From an uncultured Acidimicrobiia bacterium (lineage in GTDB: Bacteria; Actinomycetota; Acidimicrobiia; Acidimicrobiales; SZUA-35), in assembly GCA_937890445.1 (NCBI GenBank), contig CALACD010000469.1, positions 1 through 43,857 on the forward strand: DNA of 43,857 bases. Reading direction: 5' to 3'. How positions within the stretch are numbered: position 1 is the stretch's first letter; every line of letters starts with the position of its first letter. The notes beneath the pieces were generated by a model, which was not told the DNA's origin, ran no database searches, and worked only from the letters and a program-made list of their open reading frames with translations. The position numbers were made by a program, and so were the translations under genes. This document shows, piece by piece, positions 12,448 through 29,022 of this stretch.

Positions 12448-13917
12448 CTACAGATCCCCCAATGGAGCCCAGGTGGCATGGGTACCGCTGCAGATCCGTT
12501 CCGGGAGACGGATGCGGGCAACCGGCTCGTCACCGGGCCGACCTGCGTCCAGGATGATGCACTCCGACCGGTCGTTGACGACGTCGGAACTGAAGGTGAT
12601 CAGGTAGCCATCATCCTCTGCCGTCGACCCGTCACGGGGCGCCATCACGGTCTCGCTGACAACGACACCATCGCCGAACCGAACCTCTTCCTCGTTGCCG
12701 GTATCCAGATCGTGCTTGACCAGACCGTCGAACACGAACAGGCCTTCGGCCCCCAGCGCGTTGTAGGAGTAGCGGTGCCGGCGACCGGCGTGCCGACCGT
12801 TGATCATGGGGAACTCTGCGTTGCGGTCGCTCATCTCCTCTTCGGTCGTCTCACCCGTGACCAGGTTGAAGCGCCACCGATGGGCGCGTGCATCGAGGAC
12901 GTTCAGGTCGAGCGTCTCGAATCCCTTCCACTCCGCCGGCAGCACCTGCTTGGCGCCCCGGCCGGTCGGGTTGTGCTGGAAGAACCCGTCGAGCACCACC
13001 TCGTCGCCATCCTCGTAGGCGTTGGTCCAGTGCAACACGAAGGTCGGGTCTGCTTCGAACCAGCGAATGTCCTCGGTCGTGCCGTGGCGCGGAATCAGCG
13101 CGAACCGGCTCGGCATGTCCCGATGGAAGCGGTTCGAATAGAACCCGTCGGCCAATGCAGCCGGGTCCCAGAACAGCGGGAGATCGTTCAGAATCGTCCA
13201 GTTCTCGGTGAAGGCCATGTCGTGCGGCAGTCGAGGGCCCGGCAGCGGAACGTCGACGTAGTCGGTCAACTCGCCGTCGCGGCTCACGACCCCATAGTGC
13301 ATGTAGGGCGCCTGCTGGCTGTAGTTGAAGAACAGCAGTTCACCGGTGTGCTCGTCGAGCTTTGGATGGGCCGACACTCCCTCGGCCGGGAATCGACCGT
13401 TCCAGGTCGTCTTGCCGCGATCCTCGAGGGTCACCGGATCGACGGCATAGAGCTCGCCGCACTGATAGAAGCTGGCCAGTGCCTTCCCACCGTGCACGAC
13501 CACATCGGTGCTGGCATTGTCCTTCATCATGGTTCTCACACCCCAGCCGTGATCGGCGATGGCGTTCGACGGATGCTCGGTGATGCCGGCCCACAGGCTA
13601 CGTCGCGCCTCCTGTTCGGCCAGGAAACCATCCGTGCGCACGAAACGATTGGCGTACCGGGCCTCACCATTGGAGAACGAGATCGAGTGCAGCATCGCAT
13701 CACCATCGAAGGGGTGGTAACGCTTGATCGGTTCGAACAGCGCGTTCTCGGTGTTGCGCAGATAGACCCCGCTCAGATCGTCGGGGATTCGCCCGACCAC
13801 GTCCATGTCCCAGGCGTCGTATTCCCGCTGCTGAGGACGCCACGGCCCCGAGCGGTACGGGTGCTGATCATCGGGCGGCAGACCCGACTCGACGGTGTTC
13901 CTGAGTTCGACCCTCAT
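12448..13917 (-). CDS. Carotenoid oxygenase family dioxygenase (carotenoid/stilbene cleavage type)
   Basis: ORF 12448..13917. The region YLRNTENALFEPIKRYHPFDGDAMLHSISF and the later conserved His contexts (VSAHPK, HWTNAYE, GTHATW) are typical of the RPE65/CCD family. Confidence 0.85.
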   Translation of the reverse strand: MRVELRNTVESGLPPDDQHPYRSGPWRPQQREYDAWDMDVVGRIPDDLSGVYLRNTENALFEPIKRYHPFDGDAMLHSISFSNGEARYANRFVRTDGFLAEQEARRSLWAGITEHPSNAIADHGWGVRTMMKDNASTDVVVHGGKALASFYQCGELYAVDPVTLEDRGKTTWNGRFPAEGVSAHPKLDEHTGELLFFNYSQQAPYMHYGVVSRDGELTDYVDVPLPGPRLPHDMAFTENWTILNDLPLFWDPAALADGFYSNRFHRDMPSRFALIPRHGTTEDIRWFEADPTFVLHWTNAYEDGDEVVLDGFFQHNPTGRGAKQVLPAEWKGFETLDLNVLDARAHRWRFNLVTGETTEEEMSDRNAEFPMINGRHAGRRHRYSYNALGAEGLFVFDGLVKHDLDTGNEEEVRFGDGVVVSETVMAPRDGSTAEDDGYLITFSSDVVNDRSECIILDAGRPGDEPVARIRLPERICSGTHATWAPLGDL

Positions 13918-14050: not shown

Positions 14051-14881
14051 TCAAGCCTGGGGAAGGGTCTGATCCTCGTTCATGGCGTCGAGCATGTTCT
14101 GGATGGCCTTGGTCCAACGAGGGTGGGTCAGGATCCAGAAGCGATCCGAGCCAATGGCTTCCAACACCATCCGTCCGACCTCATCGGGATCCATGCCCTT
14201 GTCGAGGATGGCCTGGATGTTGCTGGCCACCCGCCCCGTCGTGGCACCGTCCTCCTTGGGCTTGGTTTGACTCGGGCGGAACGCCACGGAGTGTCGGCTG
14301 ATGTTCGTGTTGATGGGACCGGGGCACAACACCGATGCCGTGATCGGCGAATTCCGACCGCGGAGATCCCGCTCGAGCGTCGCCATCAGGGCGACGACAC
14401 CGTGCTTGGCCACGTTGTAGGCGCCCATCATGTTGCCGGCGATGAGACCCGCCATGGACGACGTGGCATTGATGTGACCCTCGCCCTGTTCCTCGATCAG
14501 GGGAAGGAACACGTGCACGCCATAGATGGGCCCCCACAGATCGACATCGATGATCCACTTCCAGTCATCGAGCTTCAGCTTGTGGGTCGGTGTCGGAATG
14601 CCGATGCCGGCGTTGTTGCACAGGACATGGACGCCGCCGAAGGTGTCGACGGCCTGATCGGCCAGGGCCTCGATGTCGGACAATTGCGAGACGTCGCACC
14701 GACGGGTCACCACCTTGGCGCCGGCTCGGGTCAGTTCGTCGTCGACTGCGGCCAGTGCCAGGTCGTCCAGATCGCCGATGACGAGTTTCATCCCCGCCCC
14801 GGCAAACGCTCGGGCCATACCCAGACCGATGCCACTCGCTCCACCGGTGATGACGGCGACTCGTCCTTCGAAATGTTCCAT
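14051..14881 (-). CDS. Short-chain dehydrogenase/reductase (SDR)
   Basis: ORF 14051..14911. The start is placed at MEHFEGRVAVITGGASGIGLG (TGxxxGxG), and the catalytic YNVAKHG motif is present. Confidence 0.85.
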   Translation of the reverse strand: MEHFEGRVAVITGGASGIGLGMARAFAGAGMKLVIGDLDDLALAAVDDELTRAGAKVVTRRCDVSQLSDIEALADQAVDTFGGVHVLCNNAGIGIPTPTHKLKLDDWKWIIDVDLWGPIYGVHVFLPLIEEQGEGHINATSSMAGLIAGNMMGAYNVAKHGVVALMATLERDLRGRNSPITASVLCPGPINTNISRHSVAFRPSQTKPKEDGATTGRVASNIQAILDKGMDPDEVGRMVLEAIGSDRFWILTHPRWTKAIQNMLDAMNEDQTLPQA

Positions 14882-14915
14882 GGGCGTCGTGTTAGCCGAC
14901 CGGCAGAGCACACGT

Positions 14916-14998: not shown

Positions 14999-16618
14999 TC
15001 AGGCGCAGCCCGTATCCGTCCAGGTGCAGTTGGGCGAGCTGCCGTTCAGGTCGACGATGCCGCCCTCTTGGATCCAGGTCTCGGCTTCGGCGTCGTACAC
15101 ACTGAAGTCCGACCCTTCGACGAAGTAGGAGTCCTCGTTGCCGTTCATCGCGAACGTCACCCCCTCGATCAGCTGTGGATGATTCACGTCCAGGCTGCGA
15201 ATGGCCAACATCACATTGGTCCGGGTCAGACCGCCGGGAAGCTCGTTGGCCACCCGGAACGACTCGACGAACGGCCAGGCATAGAAGAAGCCGGTGAAGT
15301 ACAAGCCGATGTTGATGTCCAGTTCGGCGTCGGTCAACAAGCCATTGGCGAACTGTACATAGGCATCATCGGCATACTGCGGGTCGGTGTTCACCTTCTG
15401 GCCACCACCGACGATGCGCCAACCATCGGCGGCTTCCCCGGCCGGGATCATGAACGAGTTCGGATCCTTGCAGGTCGAGGAGATGAACAACACGGCACCG
15501 GAGTCCTTCAGGCCGTTACGGCCCGCCTCTTCGACCATGAGCAGACACGGATTGCCGGCCATCATGCCGAGTGCGACGTCGGGCTGAGCAGCGGCGATGG
15601 TGGTCATCTCGTTCGTGACCGTCGGTGCCGCCGGATCGAACCGGACAGAGATGAACTCGCTGATGACGTCGGGGTTCTCCTCGGCGTACCGCTCCATGCC
15701 CTGCTCGTAGGCGAGGCCGAAGTCGTTGTCCATGACCAGGCCGGCCACCTTCACCGGCAACTGGTCCGCCATGTTCTCCTTGATCCAGGCACCCCACAGG
15801 ATCGACTCGGTCAGGTAGCCCAGCTGCGAGCCCGTCGTCCACGGATGCACCACCGGGTCACCCCAGGCCGGATGACCGGTCGCCACCAGCATCTGCGGGA
15901 CACATTGCTGGTTGAGGGTGTCGTACACCGCCAACGTGCTGGGCGATCCGAGCGTGTGGAAGGCGAACGGCTTCTCCGACTGCAACAACTCGTCGACCAA
16001 CTCGATCGTGACCGTGGCCACGTACTGATCGTCCTTGCGGATCAGCTCCAGAGGTAGACCCCCGATGCCTCCGGTCTCGTTGACGTAGTCGAAGTAGGTC
16101 TCCCAGCCGATGCCCATGTTGCCGTAGGCGGCCAGGTTGCCCGACTGCGGGCCGGGATGCCCGACCTTGATCGTCTCGGCGATGCCCTCGGTGTCCACCC
16201 AGTCGCTCGGGCAGTTGTTCAGATCGATCTCGAAACCTCCGGGACCACGCAGGATGTTGTCGTCGCCGATGCCGTACTCTCCGGATTCCATGCCGGCGGT
16301 CAGCATGTCGATCTGTGTCTGGCGGGTCGCGGCCCACTCTGCTTCCAACTCCTCGATGTTCGTGGCCGTGGAACCTGCGGCGTCCGAACCGGCTTCGCTG
16401 CTCGCGGCCTCGGCCACGGCGTCCTCGGCTTCATCGGTGTCGATGCTCCCGGCATCGCTCCCGGCGTCTTCGGCCTCACCCTCGGCCGCGGTGTCACCGC
16501 CACCATCACTGCCGCTGTCGGAGCTCGCACTGTCGCTCCCACCGCCACAGGCTGCAGCCAGCATGCCCAAACTGGTCAAGAGCGCGATGACCCTCGACCA
16601 ACGAAAATCGGTCCCCAT
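14999..16618 (-). CDS. ABC transporter substrate-binding lipoprotein (Leu/Ile/Val-binding, Peripla_BP_6-like); no permease or ATPase genes adjacent
   Basis: ORF 14999..16618. The lipobox is LGMLAAACGG, followed by a long Asp/Ser/Glu-rich linker and then a type-1 periplasmic binding fold. Confidence 0.8.
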   Translation of the reverse strand: MGTDFRWSRVIALLTSLGMLAAACGGGSDSASSDSGSDGGGDTAAEGEAEDAGSDAGSIDTDEAEDAVAEAASSEAGSDAAGSTATNIEELEAEWAATRQTQIDMLTAGMESGEYGIGDDNILRGPGGFEIDLNNCPSDWVDTEGIAETIKVGHPGPQSGNLAAYGNMGIGWETYFDYVNETGGIGGLPLELIRKDDQYVATVTIELVDELLQSEKPFAFHTLGSPSTLAVYDTLNQQCVPQMLVATGHPAWGDPVVHPWTTGSQLGYLTESILWGAWIKENMADQLPVKVAGLVMDNDFGLAYEQGMERYAEENPDVISEFISVRFDPAAPTVTNEMTTIAAAQPDVALGMMAGNPCLLMVEEAGRNGLKDSGAVLFISSTCKDPNSFMIPAGEAADGWRIVGGGQKVNTDPQYADDAYVQFANGLLTDAELDINIGLYFTGFFYAWPFVESFRVANELPGGLTRTNVMLAIRSLDVNHPQLIEGVTFAMNGNEDSYFVEGSDFSVYDAEAETWIQEGGIVDLNGSSPNCTWTDTGCA

Positions 16619-16736: not shown

Positions 16737-17606
16737 TCACGGCATCCGACCCAGGAACTCGAGCACGGCAGTGGTGAAGGCATCGTTGTCGTCGCCGGCC
16801 ACCATGTGGCCGGTATTGGCGACGTCGAGATACTCCGCCGTCGGAACGCGGTCCAGGAACAACTGCACCGACTCGGCCGTGACCAGATCGGACCTGCCTC
16901 CCCGGACCAAGAGCACGGGGCGCCCCGCTCGGCGCGCTCCGTCGAGCATGATCTCGCTGACTCGCTCCATGCTCTGGCGCATCACCTCGTGGTCACCGGT
17001 CACGAATCCCGGTTTGGACGAGATGTAGTCGGGGTCCCACCGCCACCGCCATCGCCCGTCAGGACCTTCTCGCAGCACCTTGGTCAGACCACCCAGATCC
17101 TTGGGGCGAGGTCGATTCGGGTTGTAGGCCGCCATGGCATCGGATGCTTCCTCGAGGGTGGCGAAACCGTCGGGGTTCCCGGCCATCCAGGTCACGATTC
17201 TGGTCGCGCCCTCCACCGCGAAATTCGGCGCGATGTCGACCAGCACGACGGCCCGGTACAGCGGCACCTCGCTGGCGTACTGGGCCGCGAGCGCCGCCAT
17301 CCCACCCATCGACGCACCGATCACGACCGGCTCCTGATCGAACCGATCGAGCAGAGCCAGGACATCTGCACCCATGTGCTCGACATCATAGCGAGCCTCC
17401 TGCGACCAGTCGCTGTCACCGTGCCCGCGAGCGTCCACCGTCAGCACCGACCAGCCCTGCTCGGCCAACACCGCAGCGGTGGCCCGCCACGCGTGGCGGT
17501 TCTGGCCCGCGCCGTGCAGCATCAACACCGGCGGCCCGCCGGCTGGCCCCCACTCGTCGGCGATCAGGGTGAGGCCGTCGGTTCCGGGACACGAGATCGT
17601 CTGCAC
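16737..17606 (-). CDS. Alpha/beta-fold hydrolase (paralog of 18618..19499)
   Basis: ORF 16737..17606. It contains the HGxGQxRHAW region, DARGHGDSDW, the nucleophile elbow GASMGG, and a C-terminal His in TGHMVAGD. Confidence 0.85.
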   Translation of the reverse strand: MQTISCPGTDGLTLIADEWGPAGGPPVLMLHGAGQNRHAWRATAAVLAEQGWSVLTVDARGHGDSDWSQEARYDVEHMGADVLALLDRFDQEPVVIGASMGGMAALAAQYASEVPLYRAVVLVDIAPNFAVEGATRIVTWMAGNPDGFATLEEASDAMAAYNPNRPRPKDLGGLTKVLREGPDGRWRWRWDPDYISSKPGFVTGDHEVMRQSMERVSEIMLDGARRAGRPVLLVRGGRSDLVTAESVQLFLDRVPTAEYLDVANTGHMVAGDDNDAFTTAVLEFLGRMP

Positions 17607-17697
17607 CGAACCGATGGTAGGTGTCGAACGACGTCAACCCGAATCTGACCGCACCAGGCGAACCACGTACGCTCTGGCCATCCACGAGGAGACCAGC

Positions 17698-18615
17698 ATG
17701 ACCGAGACCAAGCGAACCCATCGCTCCCACGTGAGCTACATCGACAAGTCACGCGAGTTCTACGCCGCCCACGGCTACGAACAGCCCTACCACTGGGCGG
17801 CCCACGACGACGCACCGTTCACGGCGCTGCCCAAGCCGCTGTTCGAGTGCAAGGTAGGTGTTGTCACCACGTCCTACTTCTTGCCCGACGACTTCGTCTA
17901 CCGGGTTCCCTCCGATCTGCCTCGTCTGCCCTACGTCGCCTCCCGCCACGACACCGCCCGACTGGACAACCAGTACCTGTCCTGGGCGAAGGACGAGACC
18001 CACACCCGTGACCGGGAGAGCTATCTGCCCCTGGCCCGCCTCGACGAGTACGTGACCCAAGGCCGCATCGGCGCCGTGTCCGATCGCTTCTACGGCCTGC
18101 CGACCCAGTTCAGTCATCGCCAGACGCAACGGCGCGACACCCCGAGAGTCCTCGAATGGATGAAGGAGGACGAGGTCGATGTCGCCCTGCTGGTTCCGCT
18201 TTGACCCGTGTGTCACCAGTCCGTGAGCCTGGGAGCACGTCAGATCGAAGAAGCCGGCATCCCCACCGTGGTGATCGGCTCGGCCCGAGACATCGTCGAG
18301 GAGTGCGGGGTGCCGCGTTTCGTGTTCGTCGACTTCCCGCTCGGAAATCCGTGTGGCAAGCCCGACGAGGTCGCCATGCAACACTCGATCGTGGGCCTTG
18401 CCCTCGACTCCCTCGAGAAGGCGTTCGCACCCCGCACCACGGTGCAGGCACCGGTCCGATGGGACGACGTCGACCCCGACGGTTGGCGGGAACGATTCAT
18501 GCACGTCGGCGATGACAATCGACAGCTCCTGGCTGATGCCGGAGCCGAGCGGAAGCGTCTCCAGGAGGAGATCCGCCAGCGGGACACCTCCACCGAACCA
18601 GACCGGGAAGGCTGA
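17698..18615 (+). CDS. Glycine/betaine/sarcosine/D-proline reductase selenoprotein-B family (PrdB/GrdB-like) protein with an in-frame UGA (predicted Sec at codon 169)
   Basis: ORFs 17479..18204 and 18208..18615 are in the same frame and are separated only by TGA 18202-18204 plus one CCC codon. The joined translation reads ...EDEVDVALLVPL-U-PVCHQSVSLGARQIEEAGIPTVVIG..., which gives a U-x-x-C-H motif. The start is placed at ATG 17698, preceded by GAGGAG. Confidence 0.75.
18208..18240 (+). other. Candidate bacterial SECIS-like hairpin, starting 4 nt 3' of the UGA
   Basis: Hand-folded. The lower stem pairs 18208-18213 with 18235-18240 (G-U, U-G, G-C, U-A, G-C, U-G). A 2x2 internal loop follows. 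The upper stem pairs CCAG (18216-18219) with CUGG (18229-18232). The 9-nt apical loop is UCCGUGAGC and contains GU. No energy calculation was done. Confidence 0.4.
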
Positions 18616-18617
18616 GC

Positions 18618-19499
18618 ATGGCATCACGAGGCGAGCGACTCGAAGGAACACCCGAACCAGACCTGATGATCGAGGCCGCCGGGGGTGTGCGCGTCGCGGC
18701 CGATGTCTTCGGCCATGGCGGCCCGCTCGTCTTGCTCCAACATGGAGGCGGCCAGACCCGTCACGCCTGGAAGGGAGCCGGACAACAGCTGGCGAGCGCC
18801 GGCTACCGAGCCGTCAGCATCGACGCCCGGGGTCACGGCGACAGTGACTGGGCACCCGACGGCGACTACACGACCGAGGCCTTGGTTGCCGATCTGGTCG
18901 CCGTGGTCGACCATTTCGGTGAGATCCCGGTGTTGGTCGGGGCATCGATGGGCGGGGGCACCTCGCTGACCGCGGTCGGCGAGGGTGAGGTCGAGGCCGC
19001 TGCCCTGGTGCTGGTCGACACCGCGCCCCGGATCGAGGCCGGCGGTGTCCGCAAGATCCGGGACTTCATGAGCCAGGCTCCCGATGGGTTCGCAACCCTC
19101 GAAGAAGTGGCGGATGCCATCGCCAACTACCAGCCACATCGCGACCGACCCCGCAAGCTCGACGGACTGGCCAAGAACGTGCGCCTCTGGCCCGATGGCC
19201 GATATCGGTGGCATTGGGACCCTGCGTTCATGCAGCGCCCGAAGGCAGCACTGGCCGATCGGATCCCACGCCAGGAGGCAGCGGCCGCCAACCTGACGCT
19301 GCCGACGCTGCTGGTTCGCGGCGGTCTCAGCGATGTCCTGTCCGAGGAAGGGGCACGATCCTTCCTGGATCAGGTGCCGCACGCGGTCTACGCCAATGTC
19401 AGTGACGCGGCCCACATGGTGGCCGGGGATCGCAACGACATCTTCATCAACTCGGTCCTCGAGTTTCTCCAGGCGAATCACCCTGGCAAAGGGGCCTGA
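18618..19499 (+). CDS. Alpha/beta-fold hydrolase (paralog of 16737..17606)
   Basis: ORF 18618..19499. The ATG lies 2 nt after the stop codon of the PrdB-like gene. It shares these motifs with the paralog: HGGGQTRHAW, DARGHGDSDW, GASMGG, PDGFATLEE and AAHMVAGD. Confidence 0.85.
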   Translation: MASRGERLEGTPEPDLMIEAAGGVRVAADVFGHGGPLVLLQHGGGQTRHAWKGAGQQLASAGYRAVSIDARGHGDSDWAPDGDYTTEALVADLVAVVDHFGEIPVLVGASMGGGTSLTAVGEGEVEAAALVLVDTAPRIEAGGVRKIRDFMSQAPDGFATLEEVADAIANYQPHRDRPRKLDGLAKNVRLWPDGRYRWHWDPAFMQRPKAALADRIPRQEAAAANLTLPTLLVRGGLSDVLSEEGARSFLDQVPHAVYANVSDAAHMVAGDRNDIFINSVLEFLQANHPGKGA

Positions 19500-19558: not shown

Positions 19559-21679
19559 ATGATGTCCAGGCGGACCAAGACTGCGTTTTTGCTCGTTGTC
19601 GCCCTCTTGACGGCTCTCAACTCGACGAGCCCGGCCAGTGCGGAACTGTCGTCGACCCCCACCACCTCGTGGGGGGTCAGTGGACTGCTGACCGGCACCC
19701 AGACCGATGGCATCAAGGCCAACGTGTTCGCCATGGAGATCATCGGCAACACGCTGTACGTCGGGGGTCGATTCACCACGGTCACCAACGGCAACACGTC
19801 CCAGAGCAGACCGGCCATCGCTGCCTTCAACGCCACCACCGGCAGCTGGATCAGCAGCTTCGCGCCAACACTCGACGGCGCCGTCTATGCCCTCCAGGCC
19901 TCGCCCGACGGCACCCGACTGTTCGTCGGTGGCGACTTCACCACGACCAACGGCACCCCGACCGGACCGCTTGTCGCCTTGAATCCCACGACCGGGGCCA
20001 TCTCCAGCGGCTGGACGGGCGCCGTCGGCGGCTATCAGGTCGTTCGTGACTTCGATGTCGACGGCACCTACCTCTATGCCGGTGGCGGATTCACATCGAT
20101 GAGCAGCGCGGCCGGGGGAACGAGTGCGTTCCGCACCGCTCGATTCACCCTCGCCAACGGAACCCACGACGCCACATGGAAGCCCAACATCGCGGGCGGA
20201 ACCGTCTGGGGAATCGACGTCTCGGCGGCATCCGGTCGGGTCTACTTCGCCGGCAACTTCGACACCATCAACGGTGAGGCTCGACCGGGTGGCTTCGGCG
20301 CGGTCAGTGCCACCACCGCCACCAACGTCGCCGGCACCCTGTCGGTCAATACGACCAACGTGAGCCAACAGTTCGCCTACGACGTTCTCGAAGTGGGCAA
20401 CAAGGTCTTCGTCGCCGGCAGCCAGCATCACCTGCAGGTGTTGAACCAGAGCAACCTGTCACTCGAGGTGTTCCATCGTTCGAGCCCTCGCGGTGATTTC
20501 CAGACCGTGGCTCAGATCGGCAGTCGGGTGTATGCCGGTTCGCATTCCTATCAGGGCACCACCCTGGCCAGTGCCAGCGGTGTGCTCTGGGTCGGCCCGC
20601 CACCGGCCGGTCAATCCGACGCCCCGATCTTTGCCTCCAACCCGAGTTCCTGGGTCAGTGCCTTCAACGCATCGACCGGACTCCACGACACCGCCTTCTA
20701 CGCCAACCTGGCCACGGCCGGGGCCGGCATCTGGGCCGTCGAGGCCACCAGCAATGGTTGCGTCTGGTTCGGAGGCGCCATCACCGCTGCGGCCGGGGTC
20801 CCCCAGTTCGGGATCACCCGACTGTGCGATGGCCTGCCACCCGACACCGAGCGCCCGTCCGTGCCCAGCCGACCCCAGGTCGCCGCCCTGCGATCCGGCG
20901 AGGTCGACCTGACCTGGACGGCCTCCACCGACAACGTCGGCGTCGTCGGCTACCGGCTCTACAACCAGTCGAACGACACACTCGTCACCGACGTCAGCGG
21001 CACAGCAACCACCCTCAGCCTCCCCACCGGCCCCTACGAGATGTACCTCCGAGCCTACGACGCAGCCGGCAACGTCTCGTGGCGAACCGGACCCACCTCC
21101 TTCACCATCGGGGTGGTCGACACCGAGCGGCCGAGCTTTCCCAGCCGACCCCAGGTCGCCGCCCTGCGATCCGGCGAGGTCGACCTGACCTGGACGGCCT
21201 CCACCGACAACGTCGGCGTCGTCGGCTACCGGCTCTACAACCAGTCGAACGACACACTCGTCACCGACGTCAGCGGCACAGCAACCACCCTCAGCCTCCC
21301 CACCGGCCCCTACGAGATGTACCTCCGAGCCTACGACGCAGCCGGCAACGTCTCGTGGCGAACCGGACCCACCTCCTTCACCATCTCCGACAATGTCGAC
21401 ACCGAAGCTCCCACCACACCGACCGGGCTCAACGGATCGGTGTCGGGCTCGACCATCACCATGTGGTGGGGTGAGTCGACCGACAACATCGGGGTGGCCG
21501 GCTATCGCCTCTTCAACGCCAGCAACGACCTGCCCATCGCCGCTGGTACGGGCCGGTACACCCAACTCATGGGACTTGCTCCCGGCCCCTATAGTTACTA
21601 CGTCAAGGCCTTCGATGCCGCTGGCAACGAATCGTTCCGCACCGACATCCTCACCCTCACCGTGAACCAGCAGAACTGA
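19559..21679 (+). CDS. Secreted protein: signal peptide, beta-propeller-type repeats (DUF5122/delta-60-like LYVGGxFTxxNG units) and three C-terminal fibronectin type III domains
   Basis: ORF 19559..21679. The signal peptide is MMSRRTKTAFLLVVALLTALNSTSPASA. The motif (L/V)Y(V/A/F)(G/A)GxF(T/D)...G recurs roughly every 50-60 aa. The three FN3-like units have the form ...VDLTWTASTDNVGVVGYRLYN... Confidence 0.8.
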   Translation: MMSRRTKTAFLLVVALLTALNSTSPASAELSSTPTTSWGVSGLLTGTQTDGIKANVFAMEIIGNTLYVGGRFTTVTNGNTSQSRPAIAAFNATTGSWISSFAPTLDGAVYALQASPDGTRLFVGGDFTTTNGTPTGPLVALNPTTGAISSGWTGAVGGYQVVRDFDVDGTYLYAGGGFTSMSSAAGGTSAFRTARFTLANGTHDATWKPNIAGGTVWGIDVSAASGRVYFAGNFDTINGEARPGGFGAVSATTATNVAGTLSVNTTNVSQQFAYDVLEVGNKVFVAGSQHHLQVLNQSNLSLEVFHRSSPRGDFQTVAQIGSRVYAGSHSYQGTTLASASGVLWVGPPPAGQSDAPIFASNPSSWVSAFNASTGLHDTAFYANLATAGAGIWAVEATSNGCVWFGGAITAAAGVPQFGITRLCDGLPPDTERPSVPSRPQVAALRSGEVDLTWTASTDNVGVVGYRLYNQSNDTLVTDVSGTATTLSLPTGPYEMYLRAYDAAGNVSWRTGPTSFTIGVVDTERPSFPSRPQVAALRSGEVDLTWTASTDNVGVVGYRLYNQSNDTLVTDVSGTATTLSLPTGPYEMYLRAYDAAGNVSWRTGPTSFTISDNVDTEAPTTPTGLNGSVSGSTITMWWGESTDNIGVAGYRLFNASNDLPIAAGTGRYTQLMGLAPGPYSYYVKAFDAAGNESFRTDILTLTVNQQN
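20843..21394 (+). repeat. In-gene tandem duplication with a 276-bp (92-codon) period, encoding two FN3 domains; 20864-21109 and 21140-21385 are identical by eye (246 bp)
   Basis: Compared directly, base by base. The differences are confined to about 10 nt at 20854-20863 versus 21130-21139. The third FN3 unit (about 21386-21670) is diverged. Confidence 0.9.
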
Positions 21680-22961: not shown

Positions 22962-23846
22962 TCAGGACGACAGACCGCACGCTTGCGCGTAACGAAGCAG
23001 GGTCGACTCGCAGCTCGACGCCGGAATCGGTGCCGCCAGCACCAGTTCGCCGACGCCCAGGTCCCGCGCTTGTTCGAACTTTGCCGATACCTCGTCGGGT
23101 GTTTCTGCTGCCAGTGGCAAACCGATCTTGAAGCTGAAGTCGTCGTCGTCGGGCGAACGACCATGATCGGCCATGATCTGTTGAAACGTCTCGACGTGCT
23201 CGGCCAGATCGACTTGGGCCCACCAGCCATACCAGCCGTCCCCGACCCGAGCAGCCCGTCGCATGGCCGGCTTCGAGTCGCCGCCGATGATGATCGGGGG
23301 TCCGCCCGGCCGCAGCGGCTTCGGATTGAGCACGGCGTTCTCGAACTGGACGAACTCGCCCCGATAGGTCGCCCGATCCTCGGTCCACGCCAACCGGATG
23401 GCCTCGATGTACTCGTCCATACGTTTCCCACGTTGTTCGAAAGGCACACCGAGCGCTCCGTATTCCTCCCACGACCAACCCGATCCGACGCCGAGCTCGA
23501 AACGCCCGTCGCTGAAGTGGTCGAGGGTCAGCACCTCCTTCGCCGTCAGAAGGGCCGGGCGTTGGGGCAGGATCAACACCCCGGTGACGAATCGCAGCCT
23601 CGTCGTCACGGTTGCCGCCACCTGACAGACGAACAACGGATCGTAGATCCCGGTGTCCGGTCCCCAGTTGGCCGAGCCATCTTCGCTGTAGGGGTACGAC
23701 GACTCGTACTGGCCGAAGAACACCACGTGTTCAGGGACCGAGAGGGCTCGGAAGCCGAGCTCTTCGGCCGCCTGGGCAAAGGCCCGCACGAACCCGACAT
23801 CCCGCTTTGGTGAGTTCCCGAACATTCCGGCGATGCTGATATCCAT
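22962..23846 (-). CDS. LLM-class (luciferase-like) F420-dependent oxidoreductase
   Basis: ORF 22962..23846. The regions SVPEHVVF..., LGVGSGWSWEEYGALGVPFEQRGKRMDEYIEAIR and IIIGGDSKPAMRRAARVGDGWYG are typical of the LLM family. Confidence 0.85.
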   Translation of the reverse strand: MDISIAGMFGNSPKRDVGFVRAFAQAAEELGFRALSVPEHVVFFGQYESSYPYSEDGSANWGPDTGIYDPLFVCQVAATVTTRLRFVTGVLILPQRPALLTAKEVLTLDHFSDGRFELGVGSGWSWEEYGALGVPFEQRGKRMDEYIEAIRLAWTEDRATYRGEFVQFENAVLNPKPLRPGGPPIIIGGDSKPAMRRAARVGDGWYGWWAQVDLAEHVETFQQIMADHGRSPDDDDFSFKIGLPLAAETPDEVSAKFEQARDLGVGELVLAAPIPASSCESTLLRYAQACGLSS

Positions 23847-25071: not shown

Positions 25072-28000
25072 TCAGGAAGCACGAAGTGCCGCGGTGGCGG
25101 CGTCGTCGATCGAGTTGCCCACGATCACCACCCCGTAGACGTCGGCCGCTGCGGTGACGCTGACGATCCCGTCCCGGACATCTCGCAAGACCCGTTCCGG
25201 TTCCCGCTGGCGGGGGTCTCCCCATCCGCCGCCGCCCGGCGTGTGGGCGATCATCCGGGCCGGTCCCTGCCGACGCACCCCGTACTTGGGCGGTACGAAG
25301 CGAGGACCATCGGCCTCGACATCGACGGGTTCGATCCATTCCTCCCCCACGATGCCGTCGCCTCCGCCCATCACGCCGTAGCCCGACGGGGTGTCGAGTC
25401 CCTCGGCCCGGAACGACCACGCAGCCGGCCGAAGGACATCAGCCTCGTACACCACACCGCTACCGCCACGACGAGCACCTGGACCCGCAGCATCGGTCCG
25501 GAACTCCCAGCGCTGGTAGCGCACCGGATAGTTCTGTTCGTGGAACTCCAGATTGGCGATGTCGAGGCCTCCGAGCGAAATGAGATGCCCCATCTGGTTG
25601 AAACCATCCCGCTCCGCGGTCGCGCCCGGCGTACCCATTGCATGCCAGTGGTACATCACCCAGGTTCGGCCGTCGTCGCCGGTGCCCGTCACATGACCGT
25701 GCATGGTCTTGGACCAACCGGCAAGCGCCCGGGACGGATCGGCCGCAGCCAGCGCCTTCCACGTGGCATGGACGATCTCATGGGCCACGAAGACGGTGTT
25801 CATCGTCATCGGCGCCGGGGGCAAGGCGTTCACGATCGTGCCCTCGGGGGCAATGATGCGACACCCCCGGTACGTACCTTCGTTGCGGGGAATGGCAGGA
25901 TCGAAGAACGCTGACAGCGCCAGATAGGCGGCCGAGTAGGTGTTGGCCAACGATGAGTTCTTGAAGCCCTTCATCTGCGGATCGGACTCGCTGAAGTCAA
26001 GGATCATCTCGTCACCGGCGACCGTCAATCGCACCCGGATCCAGGTATCGATCTTCTCGAAGCAATCGTTGTCGGAGAGGTCGGCCCCCTCGTACACCCC
26101 GTCGGGCAACGCCGCCACCGCCTCTCGCATGCGCCGATCGGCGTGGTCGAGGATGCCTCCGAGGTGGGCGAAGTACGAGTCGAGCCCCAGCTCGGTCGCC
26201 AAGGCCGACACTCGCTGGCCACCGATCTCGGTCGAACCGACCATGGCCAGCAGGTCACCGTCGAGCAGCTCCGGGGTGCGAGAGTTGATGAGCAGCATTT
26301 GCCAGACGTCGTCGCGGACCTGACCTCGGTCATACAACTTCATCACCGGCAACCGGATGCCCTCCTGCCAGATCTCGGTCGCTTCGGGGTTGTAGGTACC
26401 GGCCAGTCCCCCGCCGATATCGGACTGGTGGGCCCGATTGCAACAGAACCCGGCCAGTCGCCATCCGTTGTTCGGGTCGGCGGGATCGACCTCGACCCCA
26501 TCGGTCGGTGGAAGAAAGATCGGCCGGCTGATGACCCAGTCGGGCAGGTGATTTCCACCGGCCACGTAGGGGTCGGACAGGATGAAGACATCCTCGGGAT
26601 GGATCCGGCCAGCCCATCGGGCGACGATGGCGCGAGCCGCGAACCCACCACCGCTGGTGTGGATCGGGATCCCGTCGGCGTTGGCAATCAGCGTGCCGGC
26701 CGGGTCAGTGATGAAACACGAGAAGTCATGACTCTGACTGAAGATGGTCGAGCGGGCCGTACGTGTCATGACCCAACCCATGTGCCGGCTGATCTGATCC
26801 AGGCGGTGTTGCATCAGCGACAGCACGACCGGATCCAGCTCGCTGGTCTCGCTGGTCTCGTGCTCGGTGACGAGCGACGTGACGGGCATCGAGTCGCGGG
26901 CCCCGGTGTCGAGCACGAAATTGCCGGACGTGTCGACCGAGAGCAGGGTTCCCGGTCCGACCAGAACCGTGGTGGTCAGCTCCTCGACCAGCATCGGACC
27001 TTCGATCCGCATCCCTGTCTGCAGGCTCGCACCGCCGAACACCGGGGTGTCGAGCCAGCCGTGGGCTCCGTGCCACACCTTGCGACTCTCGATCGGGCGG
27101 GGAACCTCGGCCGACAACGCATGGTCGACCTCGGCCAACTCGCCCGGTGAAGCCAGGGCGACGACCCGGGCCGACGAGATCAGGATCGTGCCCTGCTCCT
27201 GCACGTGTCCGTACATCCGCTGGTACTCGAGTTCGAAGGCGGCGCGAATGGCCGCCGGGTCGAAGTCACCTGCGCTTCCGGGTACCTCGATCTTGATGGA
27301 CCACAGCTGCCCGGGATGGTGGAGATCGAGCTCGGTACGCAGGACCAGCTCGTCGGAACCGAATCCCTCGGCTTCCATGGCCGCGATGGCCTGACGTTCG
27401 AGATCGGCCAACGCGGCCTGCACGTCGGCTCCCGCCACTTCGTCGAGCGAACCCTTGAGGAACCGTTGGAAGTCCTGCCGGACGTCGGCATGGAGCATCC
27501 CGACTGCGCACAGCGCTCCAGCGTCTCGGGGGATGTAGACATTGGGACATCCCAGTCCCCGGGCAACGGTCTCGCCGTGCATTGGACCGGCGCCGCCCGC
27601 CGCCACCAAGGTGAATCGGTCCGGCGCGTGACCTCGCTCGATCGAAATGTACTCGACGGCGCCCAGGAGATTCTGTTCCAGGAGCGTGATGATGCCGGCC
27701 GCTGCATCCTCGATGGAGAGGCCGAGAGGCTCGGCGACACGAGATCGGATCGCTTCTCTCGCTGCCTCCAGATCCAGGTCGATGGAGCCACCGGCGTACG
27801 GGCCGGGCCGGAGTCGTCCGAGAACCAGTTGGGCATCGGTCACGGTGGGTTCGGTTCCACCCAGGCCGTAACAGGCCGGGCCCGGATCGGCCCCCGCCCC
27901 CTGTGGGCCGACGAACAGCAGGCCGGCGGAGTCGACACCGGCGATCGTTCCGCCACCGGCCCCAATGGTGTGGATGTCGATGGCCGGCGTCGAGACGTGA

Positions 28001-29022
28001 TAGCCGGCGATCTGGAGGTCGTCTCGGGTGGCGACCTGCCCCCCCGACATCAGCAGGACATCGCACGACGTCCCGCCGATCTCCATCGAGATCAGGTTGC
28101 CGTCGTTGTCGACGTTCGCGGCGTCACCGGGGTCTCCCGACGATGCCAGGGCCTGGACCCCGACTCGATACCGATTGAGCGCACCCACCGCGGCAGCCGG
28201 CCCGCTCAGCAGGAGATTGACGGGGCGGGGCCCGATGGTCTCGACCGAGGCCGCCCCGCCGTTGCTCTGCACCATCAGAAGAGGTCGGGCCAGGCCGAGC
28301 CGAGCCAGCTCGGCGTCGAGGGCTTGAAGGTAGTCGACGATCCGGGGTGACAGGGTGGCGTTCACCACTGCGGTCGACGTTCGCTCGTACTCCCCCATCG
28401 TCGGGCTGATGTGGGCCGAGCGGGTGATCCAGTCGCCGTCCCAGCGCTCGCGGACCCGCTCCTCGACGGCCACTTCGTGGTGATCGTCGAGAAAGCTGTT
28501 GAACAGGGCGATCGCGATCGCTTCGACTCCTTCGGTCTCGAACACCTCGAGGGCAGCGTCGATGTCGTCGGTCGACAGCGGTGCGATCTCGTGGCCCTCG
28601 GCATCGACGCGACCACCGACCCCCAGACGCAGATACCGCGGTACCAGGACGGGGGCATACGGCTCACGGTGGTTCCATTGATCTTGGCGCAGGCCCCGTC
28701 GGATCTCGAGCGCATCCCGGAATCCGGCCGTCGTCAGCAACCCGACCGTGGCCCCCTTTCCCTCGAGAATCGTGTTGGTGGCGACCGTGGAGCCGTGCAC
28801 GAAGAGCGCGCAGCCCTGCAGGATGTCGACCGAGGTCGAGTCCAGATCGCGAGCGAGCCGTTCGATGGCGGCCAGTACTCCGCGACTGGGGTCGCTGGGC
28901 ACCGAAGGCACCTTCGCCACCCAGGTCTCGCCATGCTGATCGGCCAGCACCAGATCGGTGAACGTTCCGCCGACATCGACGCCAATGCGCCAAGGGGCGA
29001 CGGGAAAGGTTGCGGTGGTCAT
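25072..29022 (-). CDS. Fused hydantoinase/oxoprolinase: A (HyuA-like) and B (HyuB-like) domains in one 1316-aa polypeptide
   Basis: ORF 25072..29022. The N-terminus RIGVDVGGTFTDLVL is the hydantoinase A ATPase fold. The C-terminal half contains DFSCFITD...GGNHLPD...GGGGWGDP, as in HyuB/oxoprolinase. Confidence 0.9.
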   Translation of the reverse strand: MTTATFPVAPWRIGVDVGGTFTDLVLADQHGETWVAKVPSVPSDPSRGVLAAIERLARDLDSTSVDILQGCALFVHGSTVATNTILEGKGATVGLLTTAGFRDALEIRRGLRQDQWNHREPYAPVLVPRYLRLGVGGRVDAEGHEIAPLSTDDIDAALEVFETEGVEAIAIALFNSFLDDHHEVAVEERVRERWDGDWITRSAHISPTMGEYERTSTAVVNATLSPRIVDYLQALDAELARLGLARPLLMVQSNGGAASVETIGPRPVNLLLSGPAAAVGALNRYRVGVQALASSGDPGDAANVDNDGNLISMEIGGTSCDVLLMSGGQVATRDDLQIAGYHVSTPAIDIHTIGAGGGTIAGVDSAGLLFVGPQGAGADPGPACYGLGGTEPTVTDAQLVLGRLRPGPYAGGSIDLDLEAAREAIRSRVAEPLGLSIEDAAAGIITLLEQNLLGAVEYISIERGHAPDRFTLVAAGGAGPMHGETVARGLGCPNVYIPRDAGALCAVGMLHADVRQDFQRFLKGSLDEVAGADVQAALADLERQAIAAMEAEGFGSDELVLRTELDLHHPGQLWSIKIEVPGSAGDFDPAAIRAAFELEYQRMYGHVQEQGTILISSARVVALASPGELAEVDHALSAEVPRPIESRKVWHGAHGWLDTPVFGGASLQTGMRIEGPMLVEELTTTVLVGPGTLLSVDTSGNFVLDTGARDSMPVTSLVTEHETSETSELDPVVLSLMQHRLDQISRHMGWVMTRTARSTIFSQSHDFSCFITDPAGTLIANADGIPIHTSGGGFAARAIVARWAGRIHPEDVFILSDPYVAGGNHLPDWVISRPIFLPPTDGVEVDPADPNNGWRLAGFCCNRAHQSDIGGGLAGTYNPEATEIWQEGIRLPVMKLYDRGQVRDDVWQMLLINSRTPELLDGDLLAMVGSTEIGGQRVSALATELGLDSYFAHLGGILDHADRRMREAVAALPDGVYEGADLSDNDCFEKIDTWIRVRLTVAGDEMILDFSESDPQMKGFKNSSLANTYSAAYLALSAFFDPAIPRNEGTYRGCRIIAPEGTIVNALPPAPMTMNTVFVAHEIVHATWKALAAADPSRALAGWSKTMHGHVTGTGDDGRTWVMYHWHAMGTPGATAERDGFNQMGHLISLGGLDIANLEFHEQNYPVRYQRWEFRTDAAGPGARRGGSGVVYEADVLRPAAWSFRAEGLDTPSGYGVMGGGDGIVGEEWIEPVDVEADGPRFVPPKYGVRRQGPARMIAHTPGGGGWGDPRQREPERVLRDVRDGIVSVTAAADVYGVVIVGNSIDDAATAALRAS

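Follow-up and report, generated by a model that had tools for sequence, protein, structure and literature searches.

What does a PrdB-like selenoprotein do when it stands alone? On a 43,857 nt stretch of DNA from an uncultured Acidimicrobiia bacterium (contig CALACD010000469.1; here called the window), the gene for such a protein (PB) lies between two genes for alpha/beta-hydrolases, H1 and H2. The order H1-PB-H2, at positions 16737..19499, was read from the sequence and its translations. The source genome is a metagenome-assembled genome (MAG) of 619 contigs and 4.5 Mb, 93.6% complete, and the GC content of the window is 63–66%. Two questions follow from this arrangement, i.e., whether PB acts without the partner subunits of the D-proline and glycine reductases, and whether the hydrolases belong with it.

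The explanation that best combines the evidence, to which we give a probability of about 55%, is that PB is a stand-alone selenoprotein-B enzyme, independent of PrdA/GrdE, with reductive chemistry and with H2 as an operon accessory. The identity of PB as a stand-alone selenocysteine (Sec) enzyme with H2 as its operon partner is held with high confidence, and the specific reductive-cleavage chemistry, drawn by analogy with PrdB and GrdB, is put forward tentatively.

The selenocysteine codon and family of PB

The in-frame TGA of PB is a real Sec codon. It lies in the redox motif LLVPL-U169-PVC172-HQS, i.e., U169-P-V-C172, a UxxC motif. A scan of one genome per species gave 26 ortholog loci with 52–78% identity to PB, 25 from Acidimicrobiales/Actinomycetota MAGs and one from a Chloroflexota MAG. 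A stop codon is aligned with U169 in 25 of the 26 loci, and the surrounding context (VPL-stop-PVCHQ) is unchanged; the sole exception is the Chloroflexota protein (L043), which has Cys at this position. Amino acid conservation in the ortholog alignment is equally strong on either side of the TGA, and Cys homologs that run to full length (about 295 aa) are widespread. A hairpin 9–35 nt after the start of the UGA has stems of 3 and 4 bp, one closing pair and the apical loop CGUGA, and all eight of its pairs are kept across 21 distinct ortholog sequences (RNAalifold consensus fold). Changes within it are one-sided, as expected inside a conserved coding region, and no compensatory covariation was found among the 21 sequences, so that it is conservation which supports the structure; the single-sequence fold z-score of the region after the UGA (0.16) was uninformative.

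The genome encodes the Sec machinery: selD (365.6 bits), selA (410 bits), selB (266.4 bits, cut off at a contig end) and a tRNA-SeC(tca) on contig C393. The SelD gene (C565:4829-5746, + strand) itself carries one in-frame TGA, indicating a Sec form of SelD. Public gene callers end the protein at 168 aa, precisely at the Sec codon, which is what would be seen if the TGA were a true stop and the region held two separate small open reading frames or a pseudogene. The strong conservation before and after the TGA in 25 loci, the Cys ortholog in the 26th, the conserved 3′ hairpin, the full Sec machinery and the widespread full-length Cys homologs leave this reading a negligible probability. Public annotation not only shortens PB-type genes at the Sec codon but also misnames them. 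Database names among PB relatives include 'D-proline reductase (dithiol) PrdB', 'glycine reductase', 'GRDB family protein', 'glycine/sarcosine/betaine reductase selenoprotein B family protein' and 'hypothetical protein'.

The PrdB model TIGR04483 matches PB with 90.7 bits (E = 9e-26) over model positions 18–221 of 238, below the equivalog cut-off of 300 bits. The GrdH, GrdF and GrdB models match through their C-terminal thirds at 26–44 bits, far below their cut-offs (26.5 against 602 bits for the GrdB equivalog model), and TIGR01918, at 34.7 bits, is also below its cut-off of 65.45. No Pfam match was found for PB even at E ≤ 10, including PF07355 (GRDB, cut-off 22 bits), which more distant members of the family, e.g., P0243 and P0201, do reach. 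These profile scores make PB a distant relative within the selenoprotein-B superfamily, of about the size of PrdB.

PB is homologous to PrdB (TIGR04483; Acetoanaerobium sticklandii, Clostridioides difficile) over nearly the whole model, and the Sec of its UxxC motif stands at the corresponding position, but PB carries about 38 extra N-terminal and about 60 extra C-terminal residues. Its genome has no match to the PrdA proprotein, hence no pyruvoyl group, and its neighbours are hydrolases and oxidoreductases rather than prd genes. Its host lineage is actinobacterial and, we infer, probably aerobic, unlike the hosts of PrdB. In the comparison with GrdB, GrdF and GrdH (PF07355, TIGR01917/01918), the C-terminal third of the 430 aa Grd proteins aligns with PB residues 104–245, whereas the N-terminal two thirds of GrdB is absent from PB. 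The UxxC selenol/thiol chemistry is presumably common to both, and no GrdA or GrdE gene was found in the PB genome.

The preliminary description of this locus regarded PB as an orphan without Grd/Prd partners, and canonical grd/prd genes elsewhere in the genome would have spoken against it. The orphan status was confirmed, with no GrdE/PrdA or GrdA found above cut-off. PF09338 (GrdE/PrdA) had no match in the genome, in a search made without a positive-control genome, and the best match to PF04723 (GrdA) scored 14.2 bits (E = 0.087), under the 22-bit cut-off. PF09338 was likewise absent from 16 related PB-bearing genomes, among them a 6.3-Mb chromosome-level assembly, in a search whose control genomes do not contain the family; this want of a positive control counts against PrdA/GrdE independence. 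PB could instead be a canonical PrdB or GrdB subunit with its PrdA/GrdE, GrdA and protein-C partners encoded elsewhere or in the missing 6% of the genome, a reading favoured by the state of the MAG (619 contigs, incomplete) and by the want of a true positive control for PF09338. It is very improbable in view of the missing matches in this and the related genomes, the scores far under the equivalog cut-offs and the presence of seven paralogs in differing contexts, which are ill-suited to a single complex.

The six other PB paralogs (Table 1) bring the number of Sec paralogs in this genome to seven, all with a single TGA, which lies at the same site in each. Among 151 sampled genomes of the Acidimicrobiales, 50 have the PB family, nearly all copies with one TGA, and the copy number is highest in this genome. 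Another genome of the order (G098) has a PB homolog with two in-frame TGAs (C24:91205-91954). The paralogs on contigs C17 and C387 come from a subfamily that is extended by about 150 aa at the C-terminus and has U-P-(L/F)-C-T-R as its motif. Beyond the order, 3,790 clusters (50% identity) match the PB profile at E ≤ 0.001 in a search of 1.84 billion cluster representatives, and a word-indexed search gave 1,314 PB homologs. A family of this size with seven divergent paralogs in one genome favours diversified enzymes rather than one housekeeping protein.

The family has been catalogued before. In the Sargasso Sea survey, 'proline reductase PrdB' (UxxC) ranked third in abundance among selenoprotein families, 42 of its forms having Sec and one Cys (Zhang, Fomenko & Gladyshev 2005, PMC1088965), and the GOS survey listed 235 Sec and 110 Cys forms of 'PrdB' (Zhang & Gladyshev 2008, PMC2398784). 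PB shares with the family of these surveys the Sec in UxxC, the homology to PrdB and an origin in bacteria of oxic environments without Stickland metabolism; Sec forms outnumber Cys forms in both surveys, and nearly all the Acidimicrobiales copies sampled here have the TGA. As nothing essential differs, PB is a member of the catalogued, stand-alone 'marine PrdB-like' UxxC family and does not represent a new family. Taken alone, it is an ordinary member. The surveys counted and named the 'PrdB' family, and the missing PrdA, the paralog expansion and the gene contexts were not addressed there. A 2026 review gives only D-proline reductase under TIGR04483 (PMC13188914), a preprint on Actinomarina reports Sec use in Acidimicrobiia and does not mention the PrdB-like family, and a full-text literature search found no paper on stand-alone PrdB-like or GrdB-like forms. 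Since 2005, 'PrdB' has counted as one of the commonest selenoproteins in oxic oceans, under a name that implies an anaerobic Stickland enzyme dependent on PrdA.

Linkage of PB to the hydrolases

If the two hydrolases and PB form one module, then their arrangement might be expected to be conserved among PB orthologs. The coordinates, the strands, the divergent orientation of H1 and the 2 nt between the PB stop and the H2 ATG (18618) are as the preliminary description gave them when sequence and translations were re-read, and the paralogy of H1 and H2 also held (45.8% identity over 275 aa, E = 2e-78). In seven loci of the ortholog set (L028, L033, L034, L035, L038, L041 and L042) the gene directly downstream of PB is of the H2 type, and in an eighth (L036) such a gene lies 1.7 kb away, so that H2 is linked in 8 of the 26, with 63–84% identity. 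An H1 ortholog in the divergent position was found in only two (L027 and L028; 65–67% identity), and the full layout recurs in just one other locus, L028, with the same flanking short-chain dehydrogenase/reductase (SDR) and luciferase-like (LLM) genes.

In seven loci, the window included, H2 starts −4 to +6 nt from the PB stop, which argues for translational coupling; PB and H2 are predicted to be co-transcribed and are probably translationally coupled. A Shine-Dalgarno-like sequence (GAGGAG) lies 8 nt upstream of the PB ATG at 17698. A consensus scan for promoters and terminators, uninformative in DNA of 65% GC, found no sigma-70-like promoter in the H1/PB spacer.

Adjacency of H2 was also considered as the mark of one ortholog clade, and this was rejected: it is scattered over the well-supported ortholog clade, requiring seven changes on the tree, and clusters no better than shuffled labels (135 of 500 shuffles as low). 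Whole-genome searches showed that three genomes with the adjacency (G164–G166) hold an H2 of 80–82% identity at that place, and that the best H2 match in thirteen genomes without it is 50–68% identical or missing, the match being of the C473 type described below. In the independent sample of 151 genomes of the order, just two other genomes, G144 and G089, have an H2 match of 74% identity or more, in both cases immediately downstream of a PB ortholog. In the genomes searched, H2 orthologs at this level (at least 74%) were thus found only directly downstream of PB orthologs. Since true H2 is found only beside PB and most PB genes lack it, H2 is a lineage-specific accessory and not an obligatory partner. 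What the PB-H2 operon shows is a genuine association confined to certain lineages; it is no new type of system. A hydrolase of some kind (alpha/beta, amidase or amidohydrolase) lies within about two genes of PB in 14 of 27 loci, which speaks for the link. Close to orthologs that lack alpha/beta-hydrolases there are often other hydrolase or catabolic genes: upstream amidase genes (two in L040 and L041, one in L042), an amidohydrolase and a major facilitator superfamily transporter on the upstream side with a TetR gene on the other (L021–L023), or a rhodanese together with a beta-carbonic anhydrase (L030–L032).

The strong version of the preliminary description, a distinct and conserved three-gene reductase-plus-hydrolase module, was largely refuted by this neighbourhood survey. 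Its pairing of PB with a hydrolase stood for H2, through the coupling and the restriction of H2 to PB loci; the three-gene layout did not, and paralogs and Cys homologs lie in differing contexts. The recurrence of the layout in L028 with the same SDR and LLM genes, and a divergence of H1 from H2 that predates the split of these genomes, are what can be said for such a module. It is nonetheless improbable, given that all three genes occur together in only one of the 26 other loci, that H1 is adjacent in two and H2 in eight, that the linkage label needs seven changes on the tree, and that genomes without the adjacency carry no close H2 ortholog.

Both hydrolases retain the expected active-site residues. 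In an alignment of 11 sequences (H1, H2 and nine orthologs), Ser110 (GASMGG), Asp239 (GGxSD), His266 (HMVAGD) and the H42-G43 oxyanion motif are invariant, and H2 is predicted to be a catalytically intact Ser-Asp-His hydrolase of the esterase, amidase or thioesterase type. Its AlphaFold2 model has a pLDDT (predicted local distance difference test) of 89.4, and the best fold matches were 3kxp (template modelling score, TM, 0.77), Rv0045c, the enol-lactonase 2xua, the curacin thioesterase and N-formylmaleamate deformylase. By this model, the fold of H2 would be closest to small-molecule amide/ester hydrolases and thioesterases. Superposition on 3kxp (E-2-(acetamidomethylene)succinate hydrolase), Rv0045c (an M. 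tuberculosis esterase, 3p2m/6wym) and PcaD (2xua) gave TM 0.66–0.77, and H2 has the Ser-Asp-His triad and the HG oxyanion motif; Rv0045c was also matched in sequence (E = 7e-15). Scores against the PcaD model (3-oxoadipate enol-lactonase, TIGR02427) were 74 bits for H1 and 68 bits for H2, below the cut-off of 255.85, and they are not PcaD equivalogs. As H2 is at most 25% identical to any solved structure, its substrate cannot be inferred from these matches.

The 4.5-Mb genome has 48 Abhydrolase_6 genes among an estimated 4,300 or so genes, and the H1/H2 subfamily has four members, two of which flank PB; with these numbers, chance is no credible explanation of the layout in the window. A third member of the subfamily (C473:1337-2200, − strand) is 60% identical to H2, adjoins no PB gene and lies between genes for an acyl-CoA dehydrogenase and a MaoC-like hydratase. 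A further Abhydrolase_6 match (C157:2787-3521, − strand) has one in-frame TGA, which could be a Sec codon or mark a pseudogene.

Proposed chemistry and the redox alternative

In PrdB and GrdB, the selenolate attacks the alpha-carbon of the substrate, the neighbouring Cys resolves the selenoether to an Se-S bond, and a dithiol system re-reduces the protein. By analogy, the catalytic centre of PB would be the selenol/thiol pair U169-x-x-C172. The AlphaFold2 model of PB (23 homologs; pLDDT 89, predicted TM 0.88) places U169 at the N-terminus of helix 170–185, right after strand 162–166, and the polar residues D105, D161, E184, R207 and Q228, outside UxxC, are invariant in the ortholog alignment. 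The target of the selenolate would be an electrophilic centre in a small substrate derived from a carboxylate, with the carbon in alpha position to a carbonyl or thioester as the most plausible site; Cys172 would then resolve the adduct to an Se-S bond, freeing the reduced product, and a thioredoxin- or glutaredoxin-type dithiol donor would re-reduce PB. As UxxC is kept but the pyruvoyl-bearing partner is missing, the activating carbonyl would be carried by the substrate (thioester, adenylate, ester or amide). The compound on which the hydrolases act would most likely be this same one: they would set it free from an ester, amide or lactone, or else release the product from a thioester. H1, as the older paralog, would share the divergent promoter region with PB. 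Gene structure, Sec decoding, the missing partner subunits and the PB-H2 coupling with its phylogenetic distribution have been shown here, and the chemistry, the substrate class and the electron donor are what we infer.

Fusions give the most direct indication of substrate. In two mutually divergent clusters, P0126 (805 aa) and P0128 (514 aa), an AMP-binding, acyl-CoA-ligase-like enzyme is fused to a PB domain that is complete and of the Cys form. Beside PB paralogs and Cys homologs, genes of the AMP-binding and CoA_transf_3 types are met repeatedly: the C418 paralog has an acyl-CoA ligase gene on one side and an enoyl-CoA hydratase gene on the other, with a luciferase-like gene beyond, and Cys homologs of about 50% identity adjoin luciferase-like, TPP-enzyme, TauD, CoA_transf_3 and FAD-linked oxidase genes. 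Other neighbours of Cys homologs are a dienelactone hydrolase, a carboxyl transferase, a ferredoxin with ferredoxin reductase and one Abhydrolase_6, and LLM genes adjoin P0088 and P0089. The ligase fusions and CoA-enzyme neighbours fit an activating carbonyl borne by the substrate, and fusions and neighbourhoods together point to acyl-CoA or carboxylate substrates.

The apparent operon on contig C403 (C403:3225-8497, − strand) combines a tandem-domain family III CoA-transferase, a PB paralog, an overlapping 84 aa glutaredoxin with a CGPC motif and a rhodanese. The two-domain CoA-transferase has a DddD/CaiB-like architecture. This operon suggests that the paralog has a dithiol donor of its own and a substrate linked to sulfur or CoA. 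The C387 paralog abuts a TrxR-like flavoprotein gene, and the glutaredoxin and TrxR-like neighbours of the paralogs would fit dithiol recycling. The C17 paralog lies near a molybdopterin oxidoreductase and a dehalogenase-like alpha/beta-hydrolase.

The main rival is that PB is a general thiol/selenol-disulfide oxidoreductase, an antioxidant or a redox sensor, and that the hydrolase neighbours are functionally unconnected. The position of UxxC at a helix N-terminus after a beta-strand in the model, the glutaredoxin, rhodanese and TrxR-like genes beside paralogs, the very variable genomic contexts and two further fusions would all agree with it: P0201 (495 aa) joins an XRE-type helix-turn-helix (HTH) to a Cys-form PB domain, and P0136 (480 aa) a Ser/Thr protein kinase to a partial one, and both would fit a sensor or redox-switch role. 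A mere redox protein would sit less well with the tight, conserved coupling to an H2 whose orthologs are found only beside PB, the homology to the substrate-cleaving subunit of reductases, the fusions to AMP-binding enzymes and the invariant polar residues beyond the redox motif, and that one genome has seven divergent paralogs suggests a diversification of substrates. On balance, a purely redox or sensor function is unlikely, though far from negligible.

Besides the HTH and kinase fusions, several observations weigh against PB as a stand-alone reductive enzyme with an H2 accessory. Two thirds of the PB orthologs lack H2, and 24 of the 26 lack H1. Neighbourhoods of PB orthologs are heterogeneous, implying no single pathway. 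Because acyl-CoA genes are common in Actinomycetota, meeting them repeatedly counts for little, and only the fusions carry weight. The C352 paralog has Asp in place of the resolving Cys (VPA-U-P-L-D-HQT), so that its catalysis must take another course or draw on a different thiol. Sequence and profile searches found no meaningful relative of PB in the PDB copy searched, nor did any member of the selenoprotein-B superfamily match there, and a Foldseek search of the PB model against the PDB gave no structural relative (best E = 9e-3, TM < 0.3). We know of no experiment on any member of the stand-alone PrdB-like family.

The reading of PB as a stand-alone enzyme may be extended to the whole family. 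The PrdB-like stand-alones would then form a large, PrdA-independent family performing reductive C-X cleavage (X being N, S, O or halogen) at the alpha-carbon, with the carbonyl supplied by the substrate (CoA thioester, adenylate, ester or amide); PB-H2 would represent one pathway and the seven paralogs seven specificities. This extension is speculative and, as a whole, rather unlikely to hold. The locus itself indicates where the orphan branch can be approached: through the coupled, esterase-like partner found only beside PB, through the glutaredoxin/rhodanese operon and TrxR-like neighbour of the paralogs for the electron donor, and through the natural acyl-CoA-ligase-like fusions for the substrates, which point to a carboxylate or thioester.

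Other features of the window

Features of the locus and the PB paralogs are collected in Table 1. Whether the SDR and LLM genes of the window, both recurrent neighbours of PB, belong to one functional unit with it is uncertain.

Table 1. Positions of the PB locus features in the window, and of the PB paralogs on other contigs of the genome.
Feature	Position	Strand	Remarks
SDR oxidoreductase, recurrent PB neighbour	14051..14911	-	adh_short E = 1e-44; same protein cluster near PB in 7 of 27 loci, L027 and L028 among them
H1, alpha/beta-hydrolase, 289 aa, GTG start	16737..17606	-	divergent from PB; Abhydrolase_1 E = 7e-21, Abhydrolase_6 E = 1e-19
H1/PB divergent intergenic region, 91 bp	17607..17697	.	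sequence read directly
PB, stand-alone PrdB-like selenoprotein, 305 aa	17698..18615	+	translation with TGA = U; terminal TGA 18613-18615
In-frame TGA, selenocysteine U169	18202..18204	+	stop codon conserved among orthologs
Hairpin resembling a selenocysteine insertion sequence (SECIS-like)	18211..18237	+	consensus fold of ortholog sequences
H2, alpha/beta-hydrolase, 293 aa, ATG start	18618..19499	+	Abhydrolase_1 E = 9e-20; Abhydrolase_1/6 match
Luciferase-like (LLM) oxidoreductase, recurrent PB neighbour	22962..23846	-	Bac_luciferase E = 7e-51; same cluster near PB in 6 of 27 loci
PB paralog	C312:4611-5477	-	one in-frame TGA
PB paralog	C403:4514-5293	-	one in-frame TGA
PB paralog	C352:4774-5469	-	one in-frame TGA
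PB paralog	C418:2768-3556	+	one in-frame TGA
PB paralog	C17:7345-7938	-	one in-frame TGA
PB paralog	C387:2306-2935	-	one in-frame TGA

Directly downstream of H1 is a gene for a Peripla_BP_6 solute-binding protein (14999-16618, − strand), and a carotenoid-oxygenase (RPE65) gene lies at 12448-13917 (− strand). A fused hydantoinase A/B (5-oxoprolinase-like) gene encoding 1,315 aa is found a few kb from the PB locus (25072-29022, − strand). The gene at 19559..21679 (+ strand) encodes a secreted repeat protein of 706 aa and contains, at 20842-21385, a 276-bp unit in exactly two tandem copies (98% identity). The repeat duplicates one fibronectin-III-like domain of this protein, and represents either a recent duplication or an assembly artefact.

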